Shown: one piece after another, positions 3,433-26,288 of the stretch
Position numbering within the stretch: the stretch's first letter is position 1
Layout of the letters: each line of letters begins with the position of its first letter
Origin: a virus
Length of the DNA: 31,111 nucleotides
Virus record (IMG/VR): IMGVR_UViG_3300010287_000003
Direction: 5' to 3' (one strand)
Program-made: the position numbers and the translations under genes
The notes under the pieces: model-generated
Database searches by the model: none
What the model saw: only the letters and a program-made list of their open reading frames with translations
What the model was told of the DNA's origin: nothing

Positions 3433-3453
3433 ATCTGATAACGGTTATCAGAT
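3433..3453 (+). repeat. 21-bp palindrome copy 1 (ATCTGATAACGGTTATCAGAT), intergenic
   Basis: Exact match to the four other copies. Perfect 10-bp arms around a central G. Confidence 0.97.
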
Positions 3454-3472
3454 GGAGAGAGGACAGACCAGC

Positions 3473-3739
3473 ATGGCCGAAGAGAAGAACGCGCCCGAGC
3501 CGCAGGCGCAGGAAAAGAAGGCGCCGGAGAAGAAGGAAAAGCGCGTGCGCTACTTCATCGTCAACCCCGCCGGTGCGGTGCACCAGGTGAGCCGCGAGCA
3601 CGCGCAATGGCGGCTGAAGCAAGCTGGCTGGCGCATGGCGACCGACGAAGAGATCGCACGGTATGAGAAGACGTCCGTGCAGGAAGCGGGCAAGCCGATC
3701 GCCAAGCCGCACAGCACGGAATTGCCGGAGACTGAGTAA
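3473..3739 (+). CDS. Hypothetical protein (Lys/Glu-rich N-terminus)
   Basis: Frame is open from ATG 3452, which overlaps the palindrome. ATG 3473 is preceded by GGAGAGAGG at about 10 nt. 88 aa, no recognisable motif. Confidence 0.55.
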   Translation: MAEEKNAPEPQAQEKKAPEKKEKRVRYFIVNPAGAVHQVSREHAQWRLKQAGWRMATDEEIARYEKTSVQEAGKPIAKPHSTELPETE

Positions 3740-4116
3740 TGCCTCTGACGGCGGACGGCCTGGCGCGACTGCGGCGGCTGATCGGAGACACCGGCGACAC
3801 GCCAGCGTTCTCTGATGGCGAGCTGGAGACGATCTTCCGCGACAACGGCGAGGACCTGGCACGGACGATCGTGGAGTGCCTGGACGGGCTGCTCGCCGAC
3901 GCGGCGAAGCGCGTGAGCTACCGGCAGGGGCAGAGCTTCCAAGACGACAACAAGCTGTTTGACCACCTGCTAAGGCTGCGCGCCCTGTGGGAGCGCCGGG
4001 CCGGGATGCATCGGGAGCCGGTTGAGTCCGGCGATCTGACCTATGCGTTCTACGACAAGGACGGGACGGACATCCCCGACGAGTCGTGGGACGATCTGGG
4101 CTGGATGCTGAACTGA
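3739..4116 (+). CDS. Putative head-tail connector/adaptor protein
   Basis: 125 aa, TAATG overlap with the upstream gene. Position is between the capsid and tail genes. Assignment by synteny and size only. Confidence 0.45.
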   Translation: MPLTADGLARLRRLIGDTGDTPAFSDGELETIFRDNGEDLARTIVECLDGLLADAAKRVSYRQGQSFQDDNKLFDHLLRLRALWERRAGMHREPVESGDLTYAFYDKDGTDIPDESWDDLGWMLN

Positions 4117-4481
4117 TGCCGTACCTAGACGCCTGGCGCGGGCGGCGCCACACCAGCGATGCGGCTTCACGCGCGGCTGCGGCCTGGGAACGCATCCAGG
4201 ACCAGGCGCGGGAGATCGTAATTCTGCGCGGCGATCTGGATCTACCACCGCAGACGGTGCGGCTCGAAGTAGCACAGACCGTGATCGGCGAGGTGAGCGG
4301 CGGTGCAGGCCTCGCCGCGACGCAGACGGTCGTGGTGATGGGTGTAGCCGATCATCCGACGGTGCCGGACCTGGACATTCGCCGGGGCGACCGATTCGTA
4401 ATCGACGGCGCGGAGTACCGGGTGGTGGACGTCAACCGCTACCCGGGCGAGGTGCAGGCGATGACCGAAAGGAGCCGGTGA
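4116..4481 (+). CDS. Putative head closure / head-tail joining protein
   Basis: ATG 4116 overlaps the upstream TGA (TGATG). The track ORF from 4086 would overlap the previous gene. 121 aa; assigned by synteny. Confidence 0.45.
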   Translation: MPYLDAWRGRRHTSDAASRAAAAWERIQDQAREIVILRGDLDLPPQTVRLEVAQTVIGEVSGGAGLAATQTVVVMGVADHPTVPDLDIRRGDRFVIDGAEYRVVDVNRYPGEVQAMTERSR

Positions 4482-4482
4482 G

Positions 4483-4854
4483 GTGGCGCAGTCAGCGACG
4501 ATCCGGATCGAGTGGGACCAAAGCAGTCTGCGCCAGGTGGACGCCGCAATCGTCGATTATGGCGAGCGGGTTATGACGGCCGTCCGAGCCGTGGCTGACT
4601 ACTTCCGCCCGGTGTTGGAAGACTACGCGCGGCAGAACGCGAGCTGGACCGACCGGACCGGGAACGCGCGCCAGACGCTGCACGCCTGGGTTGACGAGGT
4701 GGCGCGTGACATCGTGGAGCTGTGGCTCGGTCACGGCATGGACTACGGGCTGTGGCTCGAAGTTCGCTGGGGCGGACGGTACGCGATCGTCTGGCCGACG
4801 ATCGAGCAGCACTTGGGGCAGGTGGCGCAGATGTTGCGGGAGATCTTCGCGTGA
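4483..4854 (+). CDS. Putative neck/tail-completion protein (HK97 gp10-like by size and position)
   Basis: 123 aa, GTG start with AAAGGAG upstream. Lies in the neck gene block. Confidence 0.45.
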   Translation: MAQSATIRIEWDQSSLRQVDAAIVDYGERVMTAVRAVADYFRPVLEDYARQNASWTDRTGNARQTLHAWVDEVARDIVELWLGHGMDYGLWLEVRWGGRYAIVWPTIEQHLGQVAQMLREIFA

Positions 4855-5842: not shown

Positions 5843-5861
5843 AGCGCGACGAGACCATGAG

Positions 5862-5887
5862 CCGGGGCGCTGAGCGAGGCGCCCCGG
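5862..5887 (+). terminator. GC-rich hairpin after major tail gene (9-bp stem CCGGGGCGC/GCGCCCCGG, 8-nt loop)
   Basis: Pairing checked by hand. Lies 20 nt after the stop codon; followed by TT and then the palindrome. Confidence 0.4.
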
Positions 5888-5889
5888 TT

Positions 5890-5910
5890 ATCTGATAACG
5901 GTTATCAGAT
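5890..5910 (+). repeat. 21-bp palindrome copy 2, intergenic
   Basis: Exact ATCTGATAACGGTTATCAGAT. Confidence 0.97.
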
Positions 5911-5930
5911 GCACCGGAGAGGGTAGCAGG

Positions 5931-6612: not shown

Positions 6613-9539
6613 CGATAGCGAACCTGGGCGACGCAAAAGGGCGCATCATCCTGGATGCCAGTGGGGTGCAGGCCGGGATTGATGAGGCGCGCCGGACGTT
6701 CGCCGATGGGATGCGTGGAATTGGTGACAGCCTGACCGACGTAGGCAAGTCACTGTCCATCCTGACGGCGCCGCTCATGCTGTTCGGGACGCTTGGCATT
6801 AAGGCGGCGGCGGATTTCGACGCGGCAATGCGCGAGCTGAGCGCGCGGACGGGGATCGTCGGCGACGACCTGGAGCGGATGCGGCAGGCCGCGATCGAGA
6901 TGGGGGAAACCACCGTCTTCAGCGCGGTGGACGCTGCGAACGCGCTGCTCCAGCTCACTAGCTCTGGCCTGAGCGCGGACGAAGCGCTGGCGGTTCTGCC
7001 GGCGGTGATGTATGGCGCCGCGGCGGCAGGAACGGACCTGGGCGACACGGCCGACTGGGTAACGGACATCTTGGCGCAGTTCGGCTTGAGCGCCGAAGAT
7101 GCGAACTGGGTGATCGACACGCTCGTCAAGACGGCGGGTAGCGGCTCGGCGACGGTGCAGGACCTGGCGCTCGGTTTCCAGAACGCCGGTTCGATCGCGG
7201 CGCTGTTTGGGCTGTCGGTCGATGAGGTGGCGGCGACGCTGCAAGTCTTCAGCGAAAACGGTATTAAAGGCGCTGAGGCGGGTACGCAGCTTAAGTCGAT
7301 GCTCACTAACATGACGAGCCAGACGCCCGACACAATCGCGGCCTGGAACGAACTGGGCGTGTCGATGTTCGACGCCCAGGGCAACATGCGCGACCTGGAT
7401 GCCGTGATTGACGACCTCAACGCGGCGATGGCCGACATGACGCAGGAAGAGCGCATCTCGTATATCCAGCGGCTGGCCGGGGCTTACGGGCAGGCAGGGC
7501 TTCAGGCGCTGCTGGCGGCCGGCGGCACAGACGAAATGCTGGCAGCAATGGACGGAGCTGCCGGGGCGATCGACGTCGCTAATGCCAGGATGGAAGGCTG
7601 GCACGGTGCGACCGAGGGGCTGAGCGGCTCGATCGAAACGTTCATGATCAACGTCCTGACGCCGTTCATGAACGATAAGCTGGCGCCGATGGTGAACCAG
7701 CTCGCCGGAGTGGTCGATTACATTAACCAGTGGGCGCTGAAGAACCCTGAGCTGACCTCTACGCTGGTGCTGATGCTGGCGGTGCTGACGGCGTTGGGGC
7801 CGATCATGGTGGTGCTCGGGACGATCATCACCAACACGAGCACGGTATTCGGTGCGATGACCGCGACGGCAAAGCTGCTCGGCGCGGCGATCGGCGGCAT
7901 CGGGTGGCCGGTGCTGCTGGTTATCGCGGCCGTCGGCGCGCTGGCGGCGGCCTGGTCCACCAACTTCCTCGGAATCCGCGACACGGTGATGGGTGTCGTG
8001 GATGAAATCACCCCGAAGCTGCAAGCCATCTATGACACGCTGAAGAACGGCGACGTCGAAGGGGCCGTCGGCAAGGTCGGCGAACTGGTGGAGAGCGCCA
8101 AGAGCGCGATCGAGACGGCGCTGCCGGACATCCAGGCGAAGATGAGCGAGTGGACGGCGGCGTTTTTGGACTGGCTGCCGCCGCTGGACGAGCTGACGCG
8201 CGAGCTTGGCACGCTGGCACTGAACATCGGCGTGTGGATTGGCGACAAGGCGCTGGAAATCGCGGGCTGGCTGCTGGACTGGGCGAATGCCTTCCTGGCG
8301 TGGATCGCGCCGCAGATCCCGACCATCCTGGCAGAGCTGGGCGTGCTGGCGACGGAACTGCTCAACTGGATCGGGACGGAAGCCCTGGCGCTCGCCGAAA
8401 AGCTGGCGCTGTGGGCGGCGGAGCTGGTGGCGTGGATCGCGCCACAGATTCCGCTGGTGCTGGCGGAACTCGGCGCGCTGGCAACGGAGTTGCTGAACTG
8501 GGCCGGGGAGCAGGCGCTCGCCATTGGCGAAAAGCTGCTGGAATGGGCGAATGCCTTCCTGGCGTGGATCGCGCCGCAGATCCCGACCATCCTGGCAGAG
8601 CTGGGCGTGCTGGCGACGGACTTGCTCAACTGGATCGGCGAGCAGGTGGCGGTGATCGGCGAAAAGCTGTTGGAATGGGCGGGCGCCTTTGTGGACTGGA
8701 TCGTCCCGGCGGCGGCCGACATGCTGCTGGAGCTGCCGGGGCTGCTGGCGGACCTGACGAAATGGATCCTGGACGTAATCCCGGACATTGTGGCGAACAT
8801 CCTGCTGTGGGCGGCGGAGTTCGTCAACTGGATCGGGCCGGTGGCGGCGGACATGGTGGTCGCGCTGGGCGACGTCGTCTCCGCGGTCGTCAACTGGATT
8901 CTGAGCGAGTTTGTTCCGGCGCTGATCGCAGAGGCGCCGGGCATGATGGCGGCGCTGATCCAGTTTGTGTACGAAGCGGTGACGAAGATCCCCGAAGCGC
9001 TGGGCGAGTTTCTGGGCGCGGTCACGAACTGGCTTGCGAACGACATGCTGCCCGCGCTGTTCAACGCAGCGATCGACCTGGGCAAATCGATCCTGGACGG
9101 CATTATCTCCGGCCTGGGGAACCTGGCGCGGGAACTGGCGCGGGTGATTGACGAGGCGCTGCCAGACAAGGTGAGCCTCGGCTCGATCCACGTGCCGGAC
9201 CTGGGACCGCTGGGCGGCGGGTACGACGTAGAAGTGGGCTTTGACCTGCCGGCCAATCCGCTTCAGGAACTAATGGGCATTATGGACAAGGGCGGTAAGG
9301 GGCTGGCCGACGTGCCGTACCTTATCGGTCGCGGCGCTCAACCAGAACTGTTCATCCCCGACTCGCCGGGGACGTTCTACCCGCGCGGGCAGTATCCCGA
9401 GGACCTGCTGAACGGGGGAGACACCTACAACGTTTTCGTAGACGTGCCGCCCATCCTGCTCCAGCAGGAGCCGCAGATCGAAGATAACGCGCGGTTGTTC
9501 GGCGAGCGGCTGGTCGCCGCACTACAAGCGATGGGGTAG
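6609..9539 (+). CDS. Tail tape measure protein
   Basis: 976 aa, the largest ORF. N-terminal TP901-type core-like segment (AADFDAAMRELSARTG ... TVFSAVDAANALLQL), hydrophobic segments mid-protein and Trp-periodic tandem repeats. Follows the chaperone pair. Confidence 0.9.
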   Translation: MTIANLGDAKGRIILDASGVQAGIDEARRTFADGMRGIGDSLTDVGKSLSILTAPLMLFGTLGIKAAADFDAAMRELSARTGIVGDDLERMRQAAIEMGETTVFSAVDAANALLQLTSSGLSADEALAVLPAVMYGAAAAGTDLGDTADWVTDILAQFGLSAEDANWVIDTLVKTAGSGSATVQDLALGFQNAGSIAALFGLSVDEVAATLQVFSENGIKGAEAGTQLKSMLTNMTSQTPDTIAAWNELGVSMFDAQGNMRDLDAVIDDLNAAMADMTQEERISYIQRLAGAYGQAGLQALLAAGGTDEMLAAMDGAAGAIDVANARMEGWHGATEGLSGSIETFMINVLTPFMNDKLAPMVNQLAGVVDYINQWALKNPELTSTLVLMLAVLTALGPIMVVLGTIITNTSTVFGAMTATAKLLGAAIGGIGWPVLLVIAAVGALAAAWSTNFLGIRDTVMGVVDEITPKLQAIYDTLKNGDVEGAVGKVGELVESAKSAIETALPDIQAKMSEWTAAFLDWLPPLDELTRELGTLALNIGVWIGDKALEIAGWLLDWANAFLAWIAPQIPTILAELGVLATELLNWIGTEALALAEKLALWAAELVAWIAPQIPLVLAELGALATELLNWAGEQALAIGEKLLEWANAFLAWIAPQIPTILAELGVLATDLLNWIGEQVAVIGEKLLEWAGAFVDWIVPAAADMLLELPGLLADLTKWILDVIPDIVANILLWAAEFVNWIGPVAADMVVALGDVVSAVVNWILSEFVPALIAEAPGMMAALIQFVYEAVTKIPEALGEFLGAVTNWLANDMLPALFNAAIDLGKSILDGIISGLGNLARELARVIDEALPDKVSLGSIHVPDLGPLGGGYDVEVGFDLPANPLQELMGIMDKGGKGLADVPYLIGRGAQPELFIPDSPGTFYPRGQYPEDLLNGGDTYNVFVDVPPILLQQEPQIEDNARLFGERLVAALQAMG
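8151..8939 (+). repeat. Six in-frame tandem repeats of about 132 bp (43-44 aa) inside the tape measure gene
   Basis: Units start at the Trp codons at 8151, 8280, 8412, 8544, 8676 and 8808. Units 2 and 4 share about 76 identical nt (from 8280 and 8544). Confidence 0.85.
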
Positions 9540-9544
9540 AGAGT

Positions 9545-14488: not shown

Positions 14489-14902
14489 ATGTTCGAGAAT
14501 CCGACGATCCAATCGGTTGCGACCATCGGCGTTGCGGCGCTGCTGGTCATCGTGTTCGTGGTGCTGGCGCTGGGGCTGCTGTGGCTGAGCCTGGCGCTGG
14601 TCAAGCGCATCCGCGCGGAAATGGCGCGGGCAGGGGTGACGCCGGGTCAGGTGGACCAGGCGCTCGGCGGTCTGGCGAATGTGCCGGGGTTTCTGCGCCC
14701 GCTGGTGGACGAGCCGACCGACCTGGCGATTGTGCTGCTGGCGTCGGCGTTCCGGCGCGATCCGGTGACGGTGGTTAACCAGCTTGACGTGACTCTGAAG
14801 GCACTCGGAAAACTGACTATGCTGCTGCCGGAGCTGCGCGACGCGCTGGGACTGAACGAGCAGGTGAGCGAGAGCGACCACGTTGAAACGGCTCACGGGT
14901 AG
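14489..14902 (+). CDS. Putative holin-like membrane protein
   Basis: 137 aa with a long hydrophobic stretch (VATIGVAALLVIVFVVLALGLLWLSLALV). Immediately upstream of the lysin candidate, which it overlaps. Confidence 0.45.
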   Translation: MFENPTIQSVATIGVAALLVIVFVVLALGLLWLSLALVKRIRAEMARAGVTPGQVDQALGGLANVPGFLRPLVDEPTDLAIVLLASAFRRDPVTVVNQLDVTLKALGKLTMLLPELRDALGLNEQVSESDHVETAHG

Positions 14903-16328
14903 TAATTGGCTATGGCTCGGCGCGATCGCCTGGGTGCTGCTGATCATCGTGACGTGGCACAGCGAGGACCTGGCGGCGACGCCGGTTGTGGCGCAGGGCA
15001 GCGGCGCATCTGATAACGGTTATCAGATAGAGCCGGGGTGGTACATGCGGTTGGGCGAGCTGTACTGGGACGAGGCGACGGGGCACCTGCTGTTATGCAG
15101 CGAGTGGTCTACCGACTGCCCGCCGGGCGCGCCGGTGACTCCGGAGCCGAGCGAGCTGCCGGTCATAATCCCATCCATAACTTACACCCCGGATTTGACT
15201 GCTACACCACCGCCGACCAACACGCCGCGCCCCAGTCCGACGCCGACTCTGACACCGAGCGCGACGCCGGGCATGCCGACGCCGACGCCCGAAATGAAGT
15301 GCTGGGGCACGGTGACGGCGACCAGGCTCAACGTGCGCGACAAGCCCAACGGAACTGTTCTGGGGCAGGTGGCGCAGGGCGACACGCTGGCGCTGGAAGG
15401 CGTGCGCTACGGCGAGGACGGCAGCAAGTGGTATCTGATCTACTGGTTGCCGGACGTGACCGGGTTTGTGGCCGTGCAGTATGTCGAGGTCGATCAGGAT
15501 GCGGCGTGCGGCCACCTGATCGACCGCCCCATGCTGGGCTGGACGGTCGTCCCTGGCGCGAGCCGGGACGCGCTGCTGCTGGCGGGCGATCTGATGATGG
15601 CGGGCGGGATCACACCGTCTGCCACAATCACCAGCGACGGAGAGACGGCGAGCGTGCTGCACGACGCGGGCTGGTTTGTCGTCGTGCGAATGTGGGCGAT
15701 CTGGCCCGGCGACTGCCCGGACATGAGCCTGCCGCCGGCGACGTCGGCGCGGCTGCGCGTCGAATATCTGGAGCGGCAGCACGGCGGGGCGCGGTTCAGC
15801 GCGGCGCAGCTCACCAATGAGTGCGCCTGGCCGAGCGCGGCGTACCTGCGCGACTGGCTGATCGCCGCGGTCGGCGAGTGTGACGATCGGGGCTGGTCGT
15901 GCATCCCGGTGACGTTTAACACCGGGGCGCCGGAGTTGACCTGGCTGGCGACGCTGCGCCCAGCGCTGCGCCTGATGCGCGAGCGCGGCCACTACCTGGG
16001 TTACAATGCCTACCCGTATGACGCGGACCGGTCGCTGTGCGAGGTGAACGACTGGACAAGTTACACCACCTACCGCTGGCGGAAGTTCGCGGAAGAGATC
16101 CCGGTGGACGAGCTGCCGCTGCTCTACCTCACGGAAGCGGCGCGGGGTGACGGCGCGCAGCCGGTGGTGATCGAAGATACGACCTGCTTCGTGGCCGCGA
16201 CGCGCGGCGAAGTGGTGGCGGTCAATTTTTGGTATGACGGCGTGGCGCTGGCACCGTGGACGGGCGCGGCCTGGTCGAACGGAGCGAAGTGGGAAGCGGC
16301 GCGCCAGTGGGCGCGAGCGCTGATCTGA
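14883..16328 (+). CDS. Putative endolysin: signal-anchor + Pro/Thr linker + SH3b-like + C-terminal TIM-barrel-like domain
   Basis: 481 aa, TTG start. N-terminal hydrophobic segment (WLWLGAIAWVLLIIVTW), PT-rich linker and an SH3b-like segment (ATRLNVRDKPNGTVLGQVAQGDTL ... WYLIYW ... GFVAVQYVE). C-terminal about 280 aa carries NEC ... GHYLGYNAY ... LTEAA spacing reminiscent of clan GH-A hydrolases. Confidence 0.5.
   Translation: MKRLTGSNWLWLGAIAWVLLIIVTWHSEDLAATPVVAQGSGASDNGYQIEPGWYMRLGELYWDEATGHLLLCSEWSTDCPPGAPVTPEPSELPVIIPSITYTPDLTATPPPTNTPRPSPTPTLTPSATPGMPTPTPEMKCWGTVTATRLNVRDKPNGTVLGQVAQGDTLALEGVRYGEDGSKWYLIYWLPDVTGFVAVQYVEVDQDAACGHLIDRPMLGWTVVPGASRDALLLAGDLMMAGGITPSATITSDGETASVLHDAGWFVVVRMWAIWPGDCPDMSLPPATSARLRVEYLERQHGGARFSAAQLTNECAWPSAAYLRDWLIAAVGECDDRGWSCIPVTFNTGAPELTWLATLRPALRLMRERGHYLGYNAYPYDADRSLCEVNDWTSYTTYRWRKFAEEIPVDELPLLYLTEAARGDGAQPVVIEDTTCFVAATRGEVVAVNFWYDGVALAPWTGAAWSNGAKWEAARQWARALI
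15008..15028 (+). repeat. 21-bp palindrome copy 3, inside the lysin candidate (encodes SDNGYQ)
   Basis: Exact ATCTGATAACGGTTATCAGAT. TCT at 15009 is in frame with the 14883 start. Confidence 0.97.
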
Positions 16329-16767: not shown

Positions 16768-18954
16768 TTAGGCTTCGTCTGGGTCGTCGGGCTGGAGCAC
16801 GATCAGCAGCCCGGTAAGCGAATTCAGCGCGCCGCGGGCGCACACCTGCGCCTTGTCGATGCGCAGCGCCAGTGCTTCGGCGTCCTTGTCGGAGAGCTTC
16901 CCGGCGAGGTACATGCTGGCTTGGGTGACACGTGTGGCGCGAGATGCGCTGTTGATCAGGCGGTCCAGCTCGACCACTGTGCGCTGGTAGAGGCGCTGGA
17001 CGGCGGCCGGCGGCTCGTTATCCGCCTCGTCGGGTAGCGCGGCGAGCAGCTTGGCGTAGACGTCGCGCCCGGCGTCGGTCAGGACGTAGCCGGTGCACCA
17101 CTGGCTGCCCGATGACCACTTGTTGACCGGGGCGATCCAGCCCTCGCGGATGGCGAGCTTGGCGGCAGGGCTGGTGTCAGTGTAGTCGGCGCCGTCCCAG
17201 GCGGCCGCGAGCAGCGACTCGGAGTTGGGGCGCAGCTCGTGGAGCAGGTGCAGCAGCGGCACATGCTGATCGGCGGGGATGACGGCGAGCGGATCGGGCG
17301 GGGCAACGCGCTTGACTACGCCCGGCTGTGGACGCGCGAGCTTGCCCGCGCCGATCAGCAGGTTCAGAGCGCGGTGGAAGCGGTCGTTTTGCAGACCGCT
17401 TTTCTGGCGGAGCGTTTCGAGTAGCGTGGCTTCGTCTTCCAGCAGGTCGAGCAGGCGATCGGCGTCAAGGGCGGTTTGCGTGGGCGGGAGCGACTTTTCC
17501 CAGTCTTCGGCGTCAGCTTCGTGCTCGTCCGGCTCGTCCTCGTAGTCGCCGGTGCAGTCGTCCGCCAGCTCATCATCCGGCGTCGCTTCGGCTTCGGCCT
17601 CGGTCTGCTGGCGGCGGGCGTCGTCTTCGGCCATGCTCTGCTGCCACTCTTCGCTGCCTTCGGGGATCTCTTCGCGTTCATCCGGATCGAGCACGTCGAG
17701 CAGGCGCTCGCCTTCAGGGACTTCGCGCCCGGCGGGCTTCTTAATCCACACCGAGAGCGGCGAGAGGGTGAAGCGCTCCAGCTCGCCCGCTTCGCACAGG
17801 GCGTCGATCGCGGCGTTGAGCACGTCCTCATTCATGAGGGTGTGTGAGCGGAGCCAGGCGATCTTGATGGATGAGAGCGTCGGGAAGTCGCGCTGGTGTT
17901 GCGCCACGACGCGGCGCAGCAAATTCACTGCCTCTTCGTCGGCGAACGGCTTGGCTTTGGTAGGACCGGCCGGCAGGTAGAGGTCACGGAGACGCCGCAC
18001 GCGCTGCTCGCTGACGAGGGTTTCCAGCGCGCGCCGCAGGGCTTCCAGCCCTGCCTTATCGTCAAGGCCGATATCCAGCAGCTCGCGGATTTGTGCGGTG
18101 GTGAGAGGCTTCTGGAGCAGGTCCAGGATGCGCGCCTGCAACTCGGTTCCGCAATTCACTCGGAAGAAGTCGCGGCCTTCGACGAGCGTCAGCGGGTCCG
18201 CTTGCTCGGTGCCATACAACCGGTCGTGGAGCGCGTAAGCGTCGAATTCGATTTTGGCCTGGCCGTCCCAGACGCCTGCCGTGACCAGCTTGCGGGCGAC
18301 ATCCACCGCGCGGTGTTCGGCACCATCGTCGCTGCGCCCCAGGATAACAATCGCGTCGCGGTCGAACTTGGCGTTTAACTCCGCTTCGACGCGGGCGCGG
18401 GCTGCTTCAACGCGAGCCTCGGAGTTGACGTTCTGCGTGTAGGTTTCGCCGCCGCGCTGAAACAGGCGCGTCTCGGGCATCTGATAACCGTTATCAGATA
18501 GCTCGCGGCGGATCTTAGACACAAGGGGCTGAGACACCATGCAGCGGCGGGCGATTTCATGATCGGACCACTGGCACCACTCGTCGTCCCCGAGCAGCAT
18601 GAGGACGGCACGGCGCTTGTCCTCGTTGCTGCGCCGGACGCCGTGGCTCGCGTTGGCCTTGACCGCGGCGAGGATTGCGTCACGCTTGGAGCCGGGATGG
18701 ACCGTCGCGTTGATCGCGGTGCGCTGGAGCCGTTTCGCGGCGCGGATGCGGTGCCAGCCGTCGCCGATCCAGTACCACTCGCCGTCGTAGAACAGTTCTA
18801 CATCGGGGAGCTGCGTTCCGGCGGCCATCGCGTTAGCGTAGTCTTCGATCGCGCTCTCGTCGAACACGGCGCGCGCCTGGGTGTCTTCGTCCTCGCGGAT
18901 GCGATCCAGCGGGACCATCTTCGTTTGAACTTCCTCGTCGAACAGGGTGGTCAT
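16768..18954 (-). CDS. Large ParB/Srx-domain protein with HTH and several winged-helix-like modules
   Basis: 728 aa, AGGAG RBS. N-terminus (VPLDRIREDEDTQARAV ... WYWIGDGWHRIRAAKRL ... GSKRDAILAAVKANASHG) fits the ParB N-terminal fold, followed by HEIARRCMVSQPLVSKIRR (HTH). Also has an acidic linker and repeated wH-like segments. Confidence 0.7.
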   Translation of the reverse strand: MTTLFDEEVQTKMVPLDRIREDEDTQARAVFDESAIEDYANAMAAGTQLPDVELFYDGEWYWIGDGWHRIRAAKRLQRTAINATVHPGSKRDAILAAVKANASHGVRRSNEDKRRAVLMLLGDDEWCQWSDHEIARRCMVSQPLVSKIRRELSDNGYQMPETRLFQRGGETYTQNVNSEARVEAARARVEAELNAKFDRDAIVILGRSDDGAEHRAVDVARKLVTAGVWDGQAKIEFDAYALHDRLYGTEQADPLTLVEGRDFFRVNCGTELQARILDLLQKPLTTAQIRELLDIGLDDKAGLEALRRALETLVSEQRVRRLRDLYLPAGPTKAKPFADEEAVNLLRRVVAQHQRDFPTLSSIKIAWLRSHTLMNEDVLNAAIDALCEAGELERFTLSPLSVWIKKPAGREVPEGERLLDVLDPDEREEIPEGSEEWQQSMAEDDARRQQTEAEAEATPDDELADDCTGDYEDEPDEHEADAEDWEKSLPPTQTALDADRLLDLLEDEATLLETLRQKSGLQNDRFHRALNLLIGAGKLARPQPGVVKRVAPPDPLAVIPADQHVPLLHLLHELRPNSESLLAAAWDGADYTDTSPAAKLAIREGWIAPVNKWSSGSQWCTGYVLTDAGRDVYAKLLAALPDEADNEPPAAVQRLYQRTVVELDRLINSASRATRVTQASMYLAGKLSDKDAEALALRIDKAQVCARGALNSLTGLLIVLQPDDPDEA
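18479..18499 (-). repeat. 21-bp palindrome copy 4, inside the 728-aa ParB-like gene (encodes SDNGYQ on the reverse strand)
   Basis: The + strand reads ATCTGATAACCGTTATCAGAT, so the central base is G on the sense (reverse) strand. In frame with start 18954. Confidence 0.97.
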
Positions 18955-19559: not shown

Positions 19560-19562
19560 TCC

Positions 19563-21665: not shown

Positions 21666-21704
21666 CTAACACTCTCCCCTTTTTGTACCCCTTTTGGCAC
21701 TCTA

Positions 21705-22676
21705 CTACCCTGCGCCAAGCTGATGCTTAGCAGCAGGGTTTTGTTTTATCTGCTGCGGCTGCCAGTAGTGCAGATCGAGCAGCGCCCCGGCCTGGCGTAG
21801 ATCCGTTTCGTCCACGTCCTGGTAGTACTCCAGCGTCGTCGTGATGCTGGTGTGTCCCAGGTAGTGCTGAGTGATACGGGGAGCGACATGCTCGCGGGCA
21901 AACTTCAACCCCACACGATGACGCAAGCTGTGCGCGCCCAGGCGGCGCGAAAGCCCGGCTGTTTTGCACAGACGCCGGATGACCTCGCTGATCGCACGTG
22001 GCGAGAGGCGGGCAGAGCCACGCCACGGTGTGAAGACGTAATCCGTCGGCTTGTCGGGCCGGGCTTCGAGCCATGCGCGGATGGCGTCGGCTGTCTCCGC
22101 GTTGAAGTAGATGCGGCGGCGCCGGTTCCCCTTGCCGTTCACCAGCGCAGAACAGTTGTCCAATTCGAGGTCGCGGATTCGCAGACCTGCCGCTTCGCCG
22201 GCACGACAGCCCGAATTGGCGAGCAGGAGCACGAGCGCCCGATCGCGCGGCTTGAAGCGCGACGCGGCGAGCAACATCTCCAGCTCGTCATCCGTGGCGG
22301 CCTTGCCCTGACCAAGCGGCAGCGCAGGGCGGCGATTGACGAGGTAACCAGCGGGCGAGGCGTCGATAAGGCCAGAGCGCTCGCACCAGCGAAAGAAGGA
22401 CTTAATCATCTTGACATTTTTATAGATGGTCGCCGGAGCAAGGGGGGCCTGGACCGCCGGGCGGCGGGTGTGCGTGGCGTACTTGGTTGTGCGCGTTCGC
22501 ATCGCCGTCACGTAGGCGTCGATGTCTTCGGGCCGGACAAGGGAGATCGGTCGCTGCGGCCCGATCGCGGCGACGAACTCGGTGAGGAAGCGGCGATACG
22601 TCTGCTTCGTCTGGTCAGCGCGATCGACCAGCAGATAGCGGCGTAACGCCTCTTCGAGCGTGATGGGTTCGGTCAT
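21705..22676 (-). CDS. int: Tyrosine recombinase / phage integrase
   Basis: 323 aa with SGCRAGEAAGLRIRDL, HSLRHRVG and LGHTSITTTLEYY (the R..HxxR..Y catalytic pattern). Adjacent to the tRNA fragment. Confidence 0.9.
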   Translation of the reverse strand: MTEPITLEEALRRYLLVDRADQTKQTYRRFLTEFVAAIGPQRPISLVRPEDIDAYVTAMRTRTTKYATHTRRPAVQAPLAPATIYKNVKMIKSFFRWCERSGLIDASPAGYLVNRRPALPLGQGKAATDDELEMLLAASRFKPRDRALVLLLANSGCRAGEAAGLRIRDLELDNCSALVNGKGNRRRRIYFNAETADAIRAWLEARPDKPTDYVFTPWRGSARLSPRAISEVIRRLCKTAGLSRRLGAHSLRHRVGLKFAREHVAPRITQHYLGHTSITTTLEYYQDVDETDLRQAGALLDLHYWQPQQIKQNPAAKHQLGAG

Positions 22677-22826
22677 GAGTACACCTTACGAATGAAGCGA
22701 AATTCCCAAAAAACAACGTCAGCGGGATAGCTCGCCGCTGGCTGACCGACGCAGGTAGGGCTGCGCGCGGCACATGCAGTATAGCATGATTCGCCCCGCA
22801 CACAGCCCACGACAGGACTTAGACAA

Positions 22827-23972
22827 ATGGACAGTGAGAAACCTGTAGAAATCAGGGATGAAGGCACGACGGATCGCTATTTCCACGTCATGTTGAACAT
22901 GGCGGACGACGACCTCGATCCATATGAATACCGTCTGCTGGGGCACTACCGGCGCGTGTGCGGGGCGCAGAATGTGCCATGCACCGAGGGGACGCGGAAG
23001 ACCGCCGAGCGGTGCAAGATGAGCGCCGGGAAGGTGTCGGAGACGCGCGCAGCGCTGGCAGCGGCAGGCTGGATTAAGCTGGCCGAAGACGGCAACCGGG
23101 TGATCGTGACGCTGATTGATCGCATGCCCGAAAATGTTGCCCGTTATAGCGCCGATAAGCGTTCACCTGATGAACGTTCACCACATGAACGTTCTGGGAA
23201 TCGCAAAAACGTTCACCGTATGAACGTTTCGTTCACCACACGAACAAAACGTTCACCACATGAACGCAAACGTTCACCTGGTGAACGGAAGAAAGAACTT
23301 ATTAAGAAACAACCATTCAAAGAGCCAGCAAAAACATCATCAAGCAGCGATCGGGGAGATCGGACAGGCGGCGAGCAGGTTGATGATGATGGCTTCATCA
23401 GAAACCAAGCCGAGCTGATCGGTTTGAGCCGTGAAAACTGCGAGAAGCTGCTCGCGGTGGGCGTGGAGCGCGCAACGGGGCTGCTGATCGCAGCGCGACG
23501 TAAGGCGAAGACGAACCCGGCGGGCCTGCTGCTCGCGATGCTGGGCAGCGAACAGCCGCCTTCAGCGGACGATCTGTCGCTGGTGCCGCTGGCGCTGGAG
23601 CTGGGGACGACGGAGCCGGATCGGCTGGATCGCGAGCAACGGGGGCGACAGCTTCGCCAGTTTGCCGCGCGCCAGAACGGTTCTGATCTGGCGGCGAGCA
23701 CGCCGGACCGGTCCGCGCAGGACGTGTGGCAGCAGGTGATCGGGCAACTGCGGGTGCAGCTTAACCGGGCGACGTTCGACACGTGGCTAGACGGCATGAC
23801 CGCGGAGCAGTTCGCCGATGGCGTGCTGACGGTCCGCGCTAAGCACGCGTACGGGGCGGACTGGTGCAAGAAGAATCTCCAGCCGCTGGTGGACCGGCTC
23901 GCGTCCACGGCGGCCGGGCAGGCGATCCGAGTGGTGTTCGAGGCTCCGGCGTGGATGGTCGCCAGGAGCTAA
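22827..23972 (+). CDS. Replication initiator (N-terminal wHTH, iteron-encoded linker, C-terminal DnaA-domain-I-like module)
   Basis: 381 aa. N-terminus YEYRLLGHYRRVCG ... KMSAGKVSETRAALAAAGWIKL (wHTH). The internal iteron array is translated in varying frames. C-terminus DVWQQVIGQLRVQLNRATFDTWL ... GADWCKKNL ... IRVVFEA resembles the DnaA N-terminal domain. Confidence 0.65.
   Translation: MDSEKPVEIRDEGTTDRYFHVMLNMADDDLDPYEYRLLGHYRRVCGAQNVPCTEGTRKTAERCKMSAGKVSETRAALAAAGWIKLAEDGNRVIVTLIDRMPENVARYSADKRSPDERSPHERSGNRKNVHRMNVSFTTRTKRSPHERKRSPGERKKELIKKQPFKEPAKTSSSSDRGDRTGGEQVDDDGFIRNQAELIGLSRENCEKLLAVGVERATGLLIAARRKAKTNPAGLLLAMLGSEQPPSADDLSLVPLALELGTTEPDRLDREQRGRQLRQFAARQNGSDLAASTPDRSAQDVWQQVIGQLRVQLNRATFDTWLDGMTAEQFADGVLTVRAKHAYGADWCKKNLQPLVDRLASTAAGQAIRVVFEAPAWMVARS
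23161..23286 (+). repeat. Six iterons GTTCACCNNNYGAAC (putative origin of replication), followed by an AT-rich tract 23287-23350
   Basis: Copies lie at 23161, 23176, 23211, 23231, 23251 and 23272 (15 nt each, GTTCA/TGAAC inverted arms). The downstream ggaagaaagaacttattaagaaacaaccattcaaagagccagcaaaaacatcat is strongly A/T-enriched. Confidence 0.7.
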
Positions 23973-24043
23973 AAAAACGGGGCCGGGCCGCACGGTCGCG
24001 GCGCCAGCCCCAGTGTGAAGATGCTTGAAGGAGAGGGTAGCAC

Positions 24044-24808
24044 ATGATCACTTTTGCGGCAATCAATGAGAAGGGCGGGTCGGGCCGCACGACAGCGTTT
24101 GTCAACCTAGCGGCGGGTCTCGCCGTGCGGGGGAAGCGGGTGTTGCTGATCGACACCGACGAGCAAGGTCACGCGACCATTGCCTACGGCTTTGAGAAGT
24201 TCGCGGGGCTGTACGACCTGATGGTGCGCGGCGCCAAGTGGTTTGACGTGGCGATTCCGGTGGACGCCGAGCGATACGGCAGCCGGGGCCTGAGCAATCT
24301 CTACCTGGTCGGCTCGAACGTTGAGACACGGACCATCGCGCTCAACATTGACGACAAGTGGCGGCTCGCCAAGCGCCTCGCCGAAGTTTCGGATATGTTC
24401 GACGTGTGCCTGATCGACACGTCCCCCACTCCATCCGCGCTGCACAGCACGGTGTTCCTGGCGGCAGATTACATCATCTGTCCGACAGAGCTTGAGGTCC
24501 TCGGGCTGGACGGCTTGCACGAGTCGATTAAGCGGGTACAGGCGGTGCGGGTGCTGGAAGGCAAGGACCTGCGCGTCGCGGGAATTGTGCCGAACAAGTG
24601 CCGCCTGACGACGCTTGAGCACAAAGAGAACCTGGCCCGGCTGCAAGAGAGTTTCGGCGCGGCGGTCTGGCCGCCGATCACGCTGAGCATTATCTGGCCC
24701 GAGGCGATGGCTTTCGGGCGCCCGGTGATCGTCCATGCGCCCGATCACGACGCGGCGTTTTCGGTGTGGGAAATGGTAGACCGCGTGGAGGCACTTTGCA
24801 ATGGCTAG
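24044..24808 (+). CDS. parA: ParA/Soj-family partition ATPase-like protein (Walker A Lys replaced by Arg)
   Basis: 254 aa with NEKGGSGRTT (deviant Walker A), VLLIDTDEQG and FDVCLIDTSP. GGAGAGGG RBS. Confidence 0.8.
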   Translation: MITFAAINEKGGSGRTTAFVNLAAGLAVRGKRVLLIDTDEQGHATIAYGFEKFAGLYDLMVRGAKWFDVAIPVDAERYGSRGLSNLYLVGSNVETRTIALNIDDKWRLAKRLAEVSDMFDVCLIDTSPTPSALHSTVFLAADYIICPTELEVLGLDGLHESIKRVQAVRVLEGKDLRVAGIVPNKCRLTTLEHKENLARLQESFGAAVWPPITLSIIWPEAMAFGRPVIVHAPDHDAAFSVWEMVDRVEALCNG

Positions 24809-26288
24809 TAGACGGCGGCAGGGAGATCGGATCGGACCGCTCGTAGGCGAGCGTGAGACGCCGTCGGACGCGGCGCAGCGGATCTATGGCACGGTGCGGC
24901 GCGTGAAGCTGGATGAAATCCGGATCGTGGACAGCGTTCAGGTGCGGGTAGACGGGCTGGACGAAGAGCGTGTTGAGCGCTACACGGAATTTCTGCTCGC
25001 CGGTGGCACCTTCAAAGATGCGATCGTGGTCTACCAGGATGGGCCGGACCTGATTCTCGCGGCAGGGTTCCACCGGTGTGAGGCGTACCGGCGCGCACTG
25101 GAGCGCTTTGAGCCGAGTGGGGATGCGCAAGCACTGGCGCCGTTGATGGCGGAAATTCGGACCGGCGGGCATGAGGCGGCGATCGAGTTCGCTGAAGAGG
25201 ACAATCTGGCGCACGGGTTGGAACTGTCGCCACGGGATAAAAGGTACATCCTGGAGCGCCGTTTCAAGCGCGGGCATGAGTGGGCGTCGTTGAGCAACCG
25301 AGCACTGGCAGCAAAGTTAGGCGTCTCTGACATGACGATCGGCCGCTGGCGGGCGGAGATCGAAGAGAAAACAGGTGCAACAAATGTTGCACGTGGGCGC
25401 GTCGGCAAGGATGGCAAGACCTACGATGTGAGCGGGCAGCAGATCGCGGCGGCACGCGAGGCGCTGGCGAGGCTGGCTCTGCCGCCGCTTGACAAGGACC
25501 AGCGCGAAGTAGTGCGGCGGTCCATCATCACCAGCATTGACTACATCAAGATGGCGCAGTACGGCTCCGGCTGTAAATACCGTCAGTACCTGCCCTATGC
25601 GCTCGCGGTGGAGTTGGAAGCCGACGAGCCGCGTGTGTCGCTGGTGAACTGGATGCGAGGCGAGCTGCCGAAGTGGCAGGAAGAGCAGGACGAGGCGCGC
25701 CGGACCGAGGAGCAGGCGGCACGCGCGCGCCTTAAGGAACATCTGCTGGCGGTGTTGCTGCGCGGGCCATTCGACCTGACGCAGATGATTGGATTGGACG
25801 GGCTTGCTGGCTTGACTCCGCGCGCGTGCTGGGATGTGGTCCATGATCTGATGCGCGAGGGGGCGATCCGGCGCGTGTCGGATGACGTGTATGAGCTGGT
25901 GCGCGCCGCCGAGCCGAGCGAAACTGAGCCGCTATCTGATAACGGTTATCAGATGGACGAGCCGGAGCCGGAAGCGGATTGGCTCGATGCGACGGTCAAG
26001 CGGGCGGCGGGAGTGGCCCTGCGGGATAATACGTCAATCGAATACGAGAGCGACGAGGCGATGGCGGCGAGGTTAACCGAGTTACTGCGCGTCGGCTCGC
26101 ATGTCTTGTGCGACCTGGAAGATGTGCTGGAGCAGACAGCACCGGTGCCGGAGTGGGTGTTGTCGAAGCTCGATGACTTGAGCAAATTGCTACATGGTCA
26201 TCCAGGCCAAGACGACGATATTTGGAATCCCGGGCTGAACAGCTTGCTGGCCGACCTGAACACGAGAAGCAGAAGGGAGCGGGAATGA
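24801..26288 (+). CDS. ParB/Srx-domain HTH protein (ParB-like partner of ParA)
   Basis: 495 aa; its start overlaps the parA stop. KLDEIRIVDSVQVR ... LILAAGFHRCEAYRRA (ParB N-domain-like), LAAKLGVSDMTIGRWR (HTH) and a wH-like segment. The acidic linker carries the palindrome. Confidence 0.7.
   Translation: MASRRRQGDRIGPLVGERETPSDAAQRIYGTVRRVKLDEIRIVDSVQVRVDGLDEERVERYTEFLLAGGTFKDAIVVYQDGPDLILAAGFHRCEAYRRALERFEPSGDAQALAPLMAEIRTGGHEAAIEFAEEDNLAHGLELSPRDKRYILERRFKRGHEWASLSNRALAAKLGVSDMTIGRWRAEIEEKTGATNVARGRVGKDGKTYDVSGQQIAAAREALARLALPPLDKDQREVVRRSIITSIDYIKMAQYGSGCKYRQYLPYALAVELEADEPRVSLVNWMRGELPKWQEEQDEARRTEEQAARARLKEHLLAVLLRGPFDLTQMIGLDGLAGLTPRACWDVVHDLMREGAIRRVSDDVYELVRAAEPSETEPLSDNGYQMDEPEPEADWLDATVKRAAGVALRDNTSIEYESDEAMAARLTELLRVGSHVLCDLEDVLEQTAPVPEWVLSKLDDLSKLLHGHPGQDDDIWNPGLNSLLADLNTRSRRERE
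25934..25954 (+). repeat. 21-bp palindrome copy 5, inside the 495-aa ParB-like gene (encodes SDNGYQ)
   Basis: Exact ATCTGATAACGGTTATCAGAT. TCT at 25935 is in frame with the 24801 start. Confidence 0.97.

Follow-up and report, generated by a model that had tools for sequence, protein, structure and literature searches.

A single 21-bp palindrome occurs five times in the window, by which we mean the whole stretch of 31,111 nucleotides of viral DNA analysed here, and the question is what reads it. An earlier note on this DNA took the copies for binding sites of a dimeric DNA-binding protein of the element and held the DNA itself to be under selection. Comparison with related sequences argues for both points and narrows the choice of binder.

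Five copies of one palindrome

The window is a complete circular phage-plasmid of ~31 kb. An exact terminal repeat of 123 bp leads to a circular assembly of ~30,988 bp, and the gene set comprises a tyrosine recombinase, an iteron-type Rep, a ParA, two ParB-fold proteins of 728 and 495 residues (p728 and p495) and a siphovirus late region (Table 1). The iterons and the AT-rich stretch inside the Rep gene are the probable plasmid origin.

The palindrome reads ATCTGATAAC-S-GTTATCAGAT. Its arms are identical throughout, and the central base, read on the + strand, is C in site 4 and G in the other four copies. Our search recovered the same five copies as the earlier note; the window held no further matches with up to three mismatches and no isolated half-sites, and the 7-mer TGATAAC was confined to the five copies. 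Not one of 100 dinucleotide-preserving shuffles contained any match. Also as first described, the motif is AT-rich (7/21 G+C, against 64.6% for the window), the sequences flanking the copies are unrelated, and two copies are intergenic, behind the capsid and major tail genes, with three inside ORFs. On the circle, successive sites are 2.5, 9.1, 3.5, 7.5 and 8.5 kb apart, and the farthest point of the 31 kb lies about 4.6 kb from any site.

A search near sites 1 and 2 turned up no σ70-like promoters, and a classical operator role is therefore not evident. Sites 3, 4 and 5 share the reading frame S-D-N-G-Y-Q. Site 3 is truly intragenic, since relatives of 33–46% identity keep the N-terminal transmembrane segment encoded upstream of it. 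The 481-aa protein that hosts it is the lysin candidate of the earlier note.

Table 1. Palindromes, hairpins and genes of the window referred to in the text.
Feature	Position	Strand	Context
GC-rich hairpin, 14-bp stem	3400..3431	+	directly upstream of site 1
Site 1, 21-bp palindrome	3433..3453		intergenic, major head gene (phrog_283) / 88-aa gene; directly 3' of GC hairpin
GC-rich hairpin, 12-bp stem	5860..5889	+	directly upstream of site 2
Site 2, 21-bp palindrome	5890..5910		intergenic, major tail gene (phrog_88) / tail assembly chaperone gene; directly 3' of GC hairpin
481-aa protein gene	14883..16328	+	N-terminal transmembrane helix, weak SH3_3 match; hosts site 3
Site 3, 21-bp palindrome	15008..15028		in frame, residues 43-48 (SDNGYQ) of the 481-aa protein, linker behind the N-terminal transmembrane helix
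p728 gene	16768..18954	-	orphan ParB/Noc/KorB-fold protein; ParB-N domain, HTH with wing, long rare C-terminal region with winged-helix modules
Site 4, 21-bp palindrome	18479..18499		inside p728 gene, residues 152-158, immediately behind HTH-coding segment; family-canonical position
p728 HTH, residues 131-154	18493..18564	-	recognition helix ...VSQPLVSKIRREL
p728 ParB-N (ParB/Srx) domain, residues 10-121	18592..18927	-	GWHRIRA motif replacing GERRxRA
Tyrosine recombinase	21705..22676	-	kept adjoining Rep-ParA-ParB in relatives
Rep	22827..23972	+	DnaA_N-like domain at C-terminus
Six CGTTCACC-type iterons, then AT-rich stretch	23160-23287		inside Rep gene
ParA-type Walker ATPase	24044..24808	+	AAA_31, E 6e-31; ParA_partition
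p495 gene, ParB-fold protein	24801..26288	+	overlaps parA end; contains site A and site 5
p495 HTH-coding segment	25290-25370	+	
Site A, palindrome GTGCAACA-AA-TGTTGCAC	25375..25392		single copy, directly behind p495 HTH-coding segment
Site 5, 21-bp palindrome	25934..25954		in frame, p495 gene linker, residue 379 onward; junction is the start of the conserved C-terminal module

Conservation of the site and its link to p728

At the level of sequence, comparison of relatives shows that selection acts on the DNA of the sites, since the 21-mer stays unchanged while the coding sequence around it varies. Site 1 is exact in five relatives (L012, L098, L134, L137 and L138) and site 2 in relatives as low as 92.5% nucleotide identity. 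In L001 the 21-mer sits in a perfect run of 25 bp on a background of ~70% identity, and in L111 and L106 it is kept at the position of site 3 within indel-rich linkers, the 481-aa homologs being only 33–46% identical. The outer ATCT…AGAT bases are invariant. The 21-mer is a mosaic breakpoint in L012, where its central base is flipped (Gly to Arg). Among 185,579 species genomes the motif was found in single copies only and never as a multicopy REP- or MITE-like family, so that the host REP-like element contemplated in the earlier note finds no counterpart there.

The 728-aa and 495-aa proteins, labelled ParB-like in the earlier note, both match PHROG 1033 (E 8e-19 and 3e-13, respectively). The AF2 model of the p728 N-terminus (pLDDT 91) shows, as a prediction, a ParB fold; against the PDB it scores highest with Noc, ParB with CDP or CTPγS, PadC and KorB (probability 1.0 each), the best being Noc (7nfu, E 6e-8), which agrees with that label. 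No ParA partner goes with p728. Its clamp behaviour is uncertain, because the glutamate and the first arginine of the CTP motif are replaced (GWHR versus GERR).

The family was surveyed in 80 IMG/VR loci encoding homologs of the p728 N-terminus, a palindrome being defined by at least 9 of 10 paired arm positions over 20–21 bp. At the position of p728 residues ~150–158, here called canonical, 39 of 79 phage homologs carry a palindrome, against 0.43% of control windows, and site 4 falls exactly there. About 40% of family members have none at this position, and the Acaryochloris plasmid members mostly lack it. The palindromes are 44 distinct ones with 41 distinct inner cores. Their outer NNCT…AGNN bases are conserved, and the hypervariable cores covary with the recognition helix of the protein encoded around them. 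Thus a GGAA(A)TTCC core is paired with a ‘KT’ helix (7/7 versus 0/39 others, p = 2e-8) and an AAC(G)GTT core with an F/L helix (p = 0.003), both statistics ignoring kinship. The rule is obeyed by pREB4, though its site is upstream of the gene; in L143 and L144, by contrast, the same SQPFVSKLR helix is accompanied by a related palindrome that is only imperfect.

The exact 21-mer stands at the canonical position in about 12 metagenomic p728 homologs that are only 40–64% identical, with an SQP(F/L)V helix in nearly all, and it is present in L001 and L101 too. No other window protein co-occurred with it in L001/L019 or in the metagenomic loci. The DNA-binding module can be exchanged: two loci, P0136 and L013, keep a p728-like C-terminus (68% identity for P0136) behind an N-terminus that is DUF3102; they are without the 21-mer and have instead an in-gene GTGCAAA-N-TTTGCAC directly behind their own helix, of which L013 carries an additional, dispersed copy. 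On these comparisons the site tracks p728-type proteins. An in-gene recognition site of a ParB-like protein is apparently an undescribed arrangement present in hundreds of phages, of which the five 21-mers would be one variant.

Across the 80 loci, the neighbours include a DEAD-box helicase at +1/+2 (47/80) and a Toprim protein (23/80), and in lambdoid prophages the gene directly follows a cro-like gene. This location in replication modules (helicase, primase) or behind cro hints at a replication rather than a regulatory role.

We consider it reasonably probable that the five 21-mers are double-stranded-DNA recognition sites of p728, with genome-wide control as the proposed output. Among the four proteins that the earlier note had offered as binders, the evidence speaks for the 728-aa protein and against the ParA-linked 495-aa protein, which has a site of its own.

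Competing explanations

The protein might bind the palindromes as origin-like or helicase-loading sites for lytic-mode replication, which we hold to be unlikely, if still worth serious attention. Replication and recombination modules are the typical setting of the family, its lambdoid members occupy the position of λ O, and the 21-mer of L115 is located within a primase gene. Moreover, the in-gene site right behind the DNA-binding domain resembles the layout of λ O/ori, where the site lies within the gene directly behind that domain. With λ O/oriλ, P1 RepL/oriL and SPP1 G38P (oriL, oriR) the p728 family shares a site just downstream of the part of the binder's gene that encodes this domain, a specificity that diversifies among relatives, and cro or helicase/primase genes adjoining many members. 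The origins of these initiators, however, are iteron arrays with AT-rich unwinding regions, whereas the family site is a single palindrome with no iteron array and no adjacent AT-rich unwinding element. The window has no phage helicase or primase, a classical iteron origin with its AT-rich stretch appears to be present already inside its Rep gene, and five origins in 31 kb would be unusual.

That the 21-mers form a dispersed parS centromere of ParA and p495 is improbable. In its favour, ParA in this phage-plasmid is encoded directly upstream of p495, the presumed partition ParB, and one 21-mer lies within the p495 gene and is kept in all p495 genes with a type-I C-terminus. N15, likewise a phage-plasmid, has four natural IR centromere sites bound by SopB (PMC7205306), and these (IR1-4, GTGCGACCNNGGTCGCAC) are a few identical palindromes scattered in the phage genome. 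In N15, though, the binder is the ParA(SopA)-linked SopB, whereas here the ParA-linked p495 tracks the single-copy site A, presumed to be its cognate site (parS). Site A covaries with the p495 recognition helix in all nine relatives while the 21-mer is unchanged across three differing helix/site-A alleles, which suggests that the 21-mers are probably not the partition centromere. Furthermore, the 21-mer also accompanies p728-type genes in contigs that showed no p495 or ParA homolog, and physical linkage accounts for its tie to the p495 C-terminal module, site 5 being the module junction.

Very unlikely, in our estimate, is a coupling of phage expression to metal status in which a metalloregulator of the host's Fur family (Zur, Fur or Mur) would act through these sites. 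The central 15 bp of the 21-mer, TGATAACGGTTATCA, resemble the Fur box, which in its 7-1-7 form is TGATAAT-N-ATTATCA. They are identical to those of an EMSA-validated Zur operator of C. glutamicum (cg0042/cg0043; TAATGATAACGGTTATCATTT) of the same 10-1-10 architecture (PMC2823685), and the earlier statement that the sequence matches nothing known has to be corrected. The match is probably coincidental; with only ~65,000 possible 7-1-7 palindromes, a chance match to a published operator is plausible. On either side the three outermost bases differ, the invariant ATCT…AGAT agreeing with the outer bases of the ParB-like family and not with the A/T-rich Zur flanks. In addition, the site follows the helix of a phage protein at a fixed position in the gene of that protein, and it has the single-copy distribution described above. 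Where it occurs outside the canonical position, its neighbours are MGE genes (endolysin-type peptidase, XRE, primase) and in no case genes of metal homeostasis.

Less credible still is an RNA hairpin as the selected unit, whether as an aid to termination, a signal for RNase III or processing, or an element acting in translation. The 21-mer can form a 9-bp stem (−7 kcal/mol), sites 1 and 2 stand directly behind strong GC hairpins and ahead of an RBS, and the sense-strand central base is G in all five window copies. Yet this base flips in L012, L102 and L111, three copies lie inside ORFs, in differing transcripts and on both strands, and no U-tract terminators were detected. Family-wide, the symmetry reaches the centre (position 9 at 0.91, position 10 at 0.75), with innermost positions that could not pair in a hairpin staying symmetric; 10 of the 44 palindromes are spacerless, and G·T pairs, which make up only 4 of 34 mismatches, show no enrichment. 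The symmetry and the unfavoured G·T pairs point to recognition of double-stranded DNA, not RNA, and argue against this suggestion of the earlier note.

The chance is equally slim for its other suggestion, a mini-palindrome that is selfish or passive (mobile as a short insertion, or a conserved microhomology marking recombination junctions between phage modules, with no binding protein): site 5 is an exact mosaic breakpoint, the 21-mer is found in frame in linkers of unrelated genes (481-aa protein, p495, L115 primase) and arrays of differing palindromes of its class are seen in non-coding DNA, but none of the species genomes searched has it in multiple copies as a REP or MITE element would be, the window shows neither target-site duplications nor degenerate copies, canonical position and helix covariation are unexpected for a selfish repeat, and breakpoints at a conserved 21–25-mer are an expected by-product of any conserved site.

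Proposed action of p728 and comparison with known systems

If the sites are read by p728, a dimer would contact each palindrome through the HTH recognition helix (…SQPLVSKIR…), with one monomer per half-site. Site 4, inside the p728 gene behind its HTH-coding segment, would be the family-typical copy and could provide autoregulation. The four extra copies would have been gained by the phage-plasmid lineage at sequence-tolerant places, these being two intergenic positions that follow hairpins and, with the in-gene copy included, three linkers within proteins. By analogy with KorB and Noc, the sites may nucleate or load p728 genome-wide. The output that we prefer is genome-wide transcriptional control of the plasmid prophage, with a roadblock or silencing at operon junctions, which would lie where the capsid and tail-tube genes end, where the lysis-region gene starts and where the rep-par operon meets the packaging and late genes; silencing is here an argument from the positions of the sites. 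The ParA–p495 pair would use site A as its centromere. Binding by p728, its stoichiometry as a dimer, loading or sliding that depends on a nucleotide and the effect on regulation are inferred, and so is the function of the sites, be it silencing or a roadblock, segregation or an origin.

KorB of plasmid RK2 silences promoters at a distance from its OB sites, acting as a CTP-dependent sliding clamp (PMC11790492). It shares the predicted ParB fold of p728 and is among its structural matches. Like the 21-mers, the OB sites are scattered along a mobile replicon, with some located far from promoters, and their core TTTAGCGGCTAAA is an odd-length palindrome with a central G/C, although the sequences are unrelated. 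KorB differs in that it is also the partition ParB for IncC and cooperates with the clamp-lock KorA; in the window p495 is the protein with the ParA partner, no KorA-like partner was identified for p728, and GWHR stands for GERR. To our knowledge, an in-gene canonical site is not a KorB feature. Noc of Bacillus, the top structural match, is also an orphan ParB paralog without a ParA partner, and its NBS palindromes are likewise dispersed across the replicon. It is chromosomal, carries a membrane-targeting helix at its N-terminus and serves to control the division site, whereas p728 has an acidic N-terminus and a winged-helix C-terminal extension of ~540 aa.

Silencing by the stoperators of cluster A mycobacteriophages works through a block to elongation (PMC9283540, PMC6550527). 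They too are many identical sites, intergenic and intragenic, across a temperate phage genome, but they are asymmetric, 13–14 bp long, oriented relative to transcription and bound by a monomeric immunity repressor, whereas the 21-mer is a perfect palindrome whose central base flips between relatives and whose candidate binder has a ParB fold. Of the analogies drawn in the earlier note, KorB comes closer, as does Noc, which we add here; the stoperators fail on symmetry and orientation, and N15/SopB is the weakest of the three because p495 has its own site. In L088, another palindrome allele is likewise placed behind terminator-type hairpins.

The element and its five palindromes

The two ends of the window are exact direct repeats, with the portal gene running across the resulting junction, indicating a circular assembly, so that the window is read as a complete circular genome of ~30,988 bp. 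Independent assemblies of this contig exist in ENA, Logan and JGI data (31,043-31,129 bp). By its gene set, a siphovirus late region with a plasmid-type module, it is classed as a phage-plasmid, and the iterons and AT-rich stretch inside the Rep gene mark the probable plasmid origin. No nucleotide match to INPHARED phages was returned by megablast with 25 kb of the window, and the INPHARED protein search gave just three records, all uncultured; hence there is no cultured model phage. The relatives L012, L014, L098 and L102 have related palindromes in their Rep genes. The tape-measure gene contains an internal repeat, and a gene for an HNH endonuclease (HNH_3, ZorE-like HNH) lies ~1.1 kb upstream of the TerS-like and TerL genes, a layout typical for HNH-assisted cos packaging.

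Coordinates of the features discussed, by locus
Locus	Feature	Coordinates	Remarks
Window	Terminal direct repeat	1-123; 30989-31111	123 bp, exact
Window	Siphovirus late region		TerS-like protein, TerL, SPP1-type portal, head morphogenesis protein, scaffold, major head protein, major tail protein, chaperone, tape measure
Window	Plasmid-type module		Tyrosine recombinase, Rep with DnaA_N-like domain, ParA, p495 gene overlapping the parA end
Window	Site 1	3433-3453	
Window	Site 2	5890-5910	
Window	Site 3	15008-15028	
Window	Site 4	18479-18499	
Window	Site 5	25934-25954	
Window	Tape-measure internal repeat	8270-8374; 8534-8638	~105 bp, ~97% identical
Window	p728 gene	16768-18954	Minus strand
Window	Iterons, then AT-rich stretch	23160-23340	Six, CGTTCACC-N4-GAACG-type; inside Rep gene
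Window	p495 gene	24801-26288	Plus strand
Window	Site A	25375-25392	GTGCAACA-AA-TGTTGCAC, single-copy palindrome directly after p495 HTH-coding segment
Window	HNH endonuclease gene	26724-27284	
L007	Palindrome array	1340-1475	
L008	CRISPR array	~888-1323	7 repeats, 60-61-bp spacing
L012	21-mer	4194-4214	
L013	DUF3102-type palindromes	1531-1555; 16837-16861	GTGCAAA-N-TTTGCAC core
L088	Second class allele	1959-1978; 19561-19580	ATCTGCGAATATTCGCAGAT, 17.6 kb apart
L112	Palindrome array	961-1016	
L115	21-mer	834-854	In frame
L117	Palindrome array		
L120	Palindrome array	618-810	Tandem, within family-gene linker
L123	Palindrome array	1248-1336	
L124	Palindrome array	620-668	
L127	Palindrome array	52-216	
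L143	ParB-N/HTH family gene	9390-10888	Lambdoid-type prophage
L144	ParB-N/HTH family gene	9315-10807	Lambdoid-type prophage
L145	DUF3102-type palindrome	294-316	GTGCAAA-N-TTTGCAC core

The earlier note had described five perfectly conserved copies of a 21-bp palindrome (the 21-mer), and a pattern search of the window returned exactly these five copies of ATCTGATAAC-S-GTTATCAGAT, with no extra match at up to three mismatches and no isolated half-sites. Enrichment held against shuffling as well (0 matches in 100 shuffles). The copies are 2.5-9.1 kb apart and are kept in relatives; the DNA flanking them is unrelated among copies, and their G+C content is 7/21 vs 64.6% in the window. The central base of the sense strand is G in 5/5 window copies and C in L012, L102 and L111.

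Comparison with relatives shows that selection acts on the 21-mer DNA itself. Sites 1-3 are exact in relatives as low as 92.5% nucleotide identity, and the L001 homolog (49% amino-acid identity) has a 25-bp perfect run at the site against a background of ~70% identity. L111 and L106 keep site 3 within an indel-rich linker, in a host protein of 33-46% identity. Site 5, compared with the L012 copy, is an exact mosaic breakpoint, with unalignable sequence upstream and near-identical sequence downstream; the 21-mer here joins the variable middle domains of the p495 gene to a conserved C-terminal module, and likewise in L098, L101 and L102. All intragenic copies are read in the frame S-D-N-G-Y-Q, which the flipped central base turns into SDNRYQ in L012. 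Another linker insertion in a gene of a mobile element is seen in L115, where the 21-mer lies in a phage/plasmid primase, between the Zn-ribbon and DUF7146/Toprim domains.

Two ParB-fold proteins and the proposed assignment of their sites

Two window proteins, the orphan p728 (728 aa) and the ParA-linked p495 (495 aa), had been labelled ParB-like, and PHROG 1033 bears out both labels, with matches to residues 12-148 of p728 (E 8e-19) and 28-180 of p495. Profile matches of p728 include ParB and Spo0J chains. The AF2 model of its N-terminus (pLDDT 91.3) comprises an α/β domain, an HTH with the recognition helix at residues 142-154, and a β-hairpin wing. The best PDB matches of this model in Foldseek were Noc, ParB with CDP or CTPγS, PadC and KorB, at probability 1.0 over 145-169 columns. 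As modelled, p728 has the ParB/Srx-type N-terminal domain followed by an HTH that the ParB/Noc/KorB family requires. Neither PADLOC defence models nor NCBIfam gave a match for p728 or p495.

The motifs of ParB CTPases are the QPR box, GERRxRA and ENLQR. p728 keeps the family invariants Q26-x-R28, G66-x-H68-R69 and N101. Its nucleotide motif, GWHRIRA, fits GxxRxRA but departs from GERRxRA by E to W and R to H, which makes CTP-dependent clamp chemistry uncertain for p728. The C-terminal 540 residues are rare (54 relatives in 1.8 billion representatives) and carry winged-helix-like modules; the relatives have such modules behind a ParB-N/HTH or a DUF3102 N-terminus, and in some of them a Dam methylase forms the end of the protein.

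In 9/9 p495-family genes a palindrome of the site A type stands right after the gene's own HTH-coding segment, and its allele changes with the helix. The 21-mer is unchanged across three p495 helix alleles, and it is present in other contigs that have neither p495 nor ParA. Outside this lineage the 21-mer co-occurs with none of the other proteins of the window. The proteins of L013 and P0136 (the latter at 68% identity) combine a p728-like C-terminus with a DUF3102 N-terminus; for both the 21-mer is absent and GTGCAAA-N-TTTGCAC is found in the gene after their own helix, so that a swap of the DNA-binding module seems to swap the site. Because site A covaries with p495 while the 21-mer stays constant, because the site follows the module, and because no other protein co-occurs with it, we assign the 21-mers to p728 as the predicted binder and site A to the ParA-p495 partition pair; site A is presumably the parS of p495. 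The window is a compact test case: one 31-kb replicon encodes two ParB-fold proteins, and the gene of each contains a different palindrome, so that a ParA-paired protein with a single site is set against an orphan with five dispersed sites.

The DUF3102 system of L013 and L145 is an independent analogue of that in the window. Its second copy in L013 lies 15 kb away, intergenic and just upstream of the block of packaging genes.

In-gene palindromes and the recognition helix

Site 4 comes right after the part of the p728 gene that codes for the HTH and encodes residues 151-158, at the end of the recognition helix. The peptide SDNGYQ, which had been expected to be conserved in the family, was missing from all of 120 homologs. 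The homologous DNA position was inspected in 80 IMG/VR loci with homologs of the p728 N-terminus, taken from >565 matches. A palindrome of 20-21 bp with at least 9/10 arm positions paired was present at the position equivalent to site 4 in 39/79 loci vs 0.43% of control windows, and in 39/39 clear cases it was single-copy within its locus. Dispersed copies had been expected as a general trait of phages encoding this family; the expectation failed, as palindromes recurred in merely ~5/80 loci.

The 44 distinct palindromes share the outer bases NNCT…AGNN (ATCT, CACT or TACT) and have 41 different inner cores. The core GGAA(A)TTCC accompanies a '(D/H)KTV' helix in 7/7 cases vs 0/39 others (p = 2e-8, kinship ignored), and AAC(G)GTT with an 'x(F/L)V' helix (p = 0.003, likewise ignoring kinship); these tests span different outer-base types. 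The exact 21-mer occupies the canonical position in ~12 metagenomic homologs of 40-64% identity, nearly all with an SQP(F/L)V helix. By these associations the inner core appears to track the recognition helix. From the in-gene palindromes, this covariation and the module swap, the 21-mer is predicted to be a palindromic nucleation site read by the p728 HTH, as in the ParB family. Under such a helix code, changing SQPLV of p728 to SDKTV would shift its site preference towards ATCTNNGGAAATTCCNNAGAT. The family pattern of conserved outer bases, hypervariable core and matching helix would amount to a readable code of protein-DNA specificity. It offers dozens of naturally occurring pairs of protein and site that seem to be orthogonal and could serve ParB/parS-type DNA-labelling tools and studies of incompatibility between co-infecting elements.

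Several loci show variations of this arrangement. In L143 and L144 the family gene comes directly after a divergent cI-like/cro-like pair, the slot of λ O; as a same-helix test these loci gave a partial match only, with an imperfect palindrome (CACTCCAAAC|GTTATGAGTG). Co-resident Acaryochloris plasmids, used as a test of orthogonality, carry a different subtype (ParB-N, HTH, degenerate methyltransferase), mostly without an in-gene palindrome. Both ATCTGCGAATATTCGCAGAT copies of L088 stand directly against intrinsic-terminator hairpins, and the in-gene allele of that locus, ATCTGCAAACGGTTTGCAGAT, is a different one. TGGCAACGTTGCCA occurs five times in L095. In seven loci (Table) the 21-mer has, at a distance of tens of bp, arrays of differing palindromes that belong to the ATCT/CACT/TACT class; some stand in tandem in a linker of a family gene (L120) and others are non-coding, one of these loci being in the chromosome of Singulisphaera sp. 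PoT.

Proposed role of the sites and competing explanations

Sites 1 and 2 directly follow GC hairpins of 14 bp and 12 bp where the capsid gene and the tail-tube gene end, respectively, and a different allele in L088 is likewise placed against terminators. Site 3 lies where the lysis-region gene begins; an intergenic position, with the gene starting at ATG 15045, was rejected as the upstream transmembrane segment is conserved. Site 5 lies between the rep-par operon and the packaging and late genes, all on the same strand. Several identical palindromic sites are thus dispersed over one replicon, as in a KorB-type operator set. This placement and the fold of p728 suggest, by analogy, that a ParB-type protein, once loaded, controls the whole genome in the manner of KorB. 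A consensus scan for promoters and terminators near sites 1 and 2 gave nothing relevant; the promoters sought were σ70-like, a type that may not be that of the host, and no KorA-like partner, the co-repressor that locks the KorB clamp, was identified.

We propose that p728 belongs to a large phage and plasmid family of ParB-fold proteins (>565 in IMG/VR), each gene of which would carry a hypervariable palindrome matched to its helix. A palindrome behind the HTH-coding segment would promote loading in cis during translation, and a specificity orthogonal to that of competing elements. In the present lineage the site may have been multiplied into a genome-wide loading set, giving a second, ParA-independent ParB system that would silence or organise the plasmid prophage. 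Heterologous palindrome arrays elsewhere could be multi-specificity decoy or hijack sites against several such proteins. Taken together, an apparently undescribed ParB family carrying its own sites, a multiplied loading set here and decoy arrays elsewhere make up a tentative picture, and as a whole a somewhat doubtful one.

CTP-dependent clamps of the ParB family do more than segregate DNA, an example being the membrane tethering by Noc. Systems in which a ParB-family protein has dispersed palindromes are already known (KorB, Noc, N15), and silencing by a CTP-dependent clamp is described for KorB (PMC11790492). A survey of 2025 lists orphan ParB-like genes of temperate phages as of unknown function (PMC12315714). 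In the literature we found no description of an in-gene site that runs through a whole family and has a hypervariable core matched to the helix, of a replicon that combines two such protein-site pairs, or of a multiplied orphan-protein site. Should genome-wide silencing turn out to start from these sites as loading points, a phage would be seen to use a KorB-like mechanism.

A real alternative keeps p728 as the binder and makes the sites origins or helicase-loading points of the λ O type. As with λ O, the site is within the binder's gene, after the part coding for the DNA-binding domain, and typical family members adjoin helicase and primase genes or come directly after cro, a neighbourhood that sustains this alternative. 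However, an iteron array with an AT-rich unwinding region is not seen at the 21-mers, which have one palindrome per site; that structure sits in Rep.

A centromere (parS) of the N15 or type I ParABS kind would be expected to co-vary with the ParA-linked ParB. Site A does so but the 21-mer does not, and its occurrence without p495 and ParA also counts against this role, which we do not favour. A host Zur/Fur box is suggested by the central 15 bases, which match a validated C. glutamicum Zur operator at 15/15 positions, and by the inverted repeat (7-1-7 or 10-1-10). The outer bases, however, are invariant and non-Zur, and the 21-mer is linked to a phage protein and has only genes of phages and mobile elements as its context, not promoters of metal-homeostasis genes, so that this reading is improbable. 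An RNA hairpin, too, is disfavoured by the family palindromes, since their innermost positions are still complementary (0.91 and 0.75), the spacer is absent in 10/44, and G·T pairs are only 4/34 of the mismatches; the pattern fits a duplex site bound by a dimer rather than an RNA stem.

A selfish repeat is hardly compatible with the 19-mer core, which was never multi-copy in 185,579 species-representative genomes. Nor did GTDB representative genomes, as an indirect test, show a REP- or MITE-like host repeat (the earlier note had named a REP-like element): there was at most one copy of the core per genome. The likeness to the stoperators of cluster A mycobacteriophages, also raised there, does not hold: these are asymmetric, fixed in orientation to transcription and bound by the immunity repressor, whereas the 21-mer is a perfect palindrome whose sense-strand central base flips in relatives. 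A role as targets of the tyrosine recombinase is rejected on logical grounds, since recombination between five symmetric sites spread over the element would scramble an essential genome, and the 21-mer tracks p728, not the recombinase.

The seven occurrences of the 19-mer core in these genomes, each single, include several remnants of p728-like genes and one CRISPR spacer in a Deinococcus sp. MAG (L008, NZ_JANYGJ010000032.1). This spacer of 32 nt, CCGCTCT-ATCTGATAACGGTTATCAGAT-AGAG, contains the 21-mer; its flanks are unlike those of all five window sites, so its target is a relative, and it hints at Deinococcus-type hosts. In metagenome Ga0185299 four contigs of 93-417 kb (L108, L109, L110 and L116) carry one 21-mer each, in a p728N-like gene or a truncated remnant, which suggests that they come from one genome in which the gene family or element has several copies. 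This genome is possibly that of a planctomycete, compared with the remnant in a Gemmataceae MAG (L006) and the Singulisphaera array (L007).
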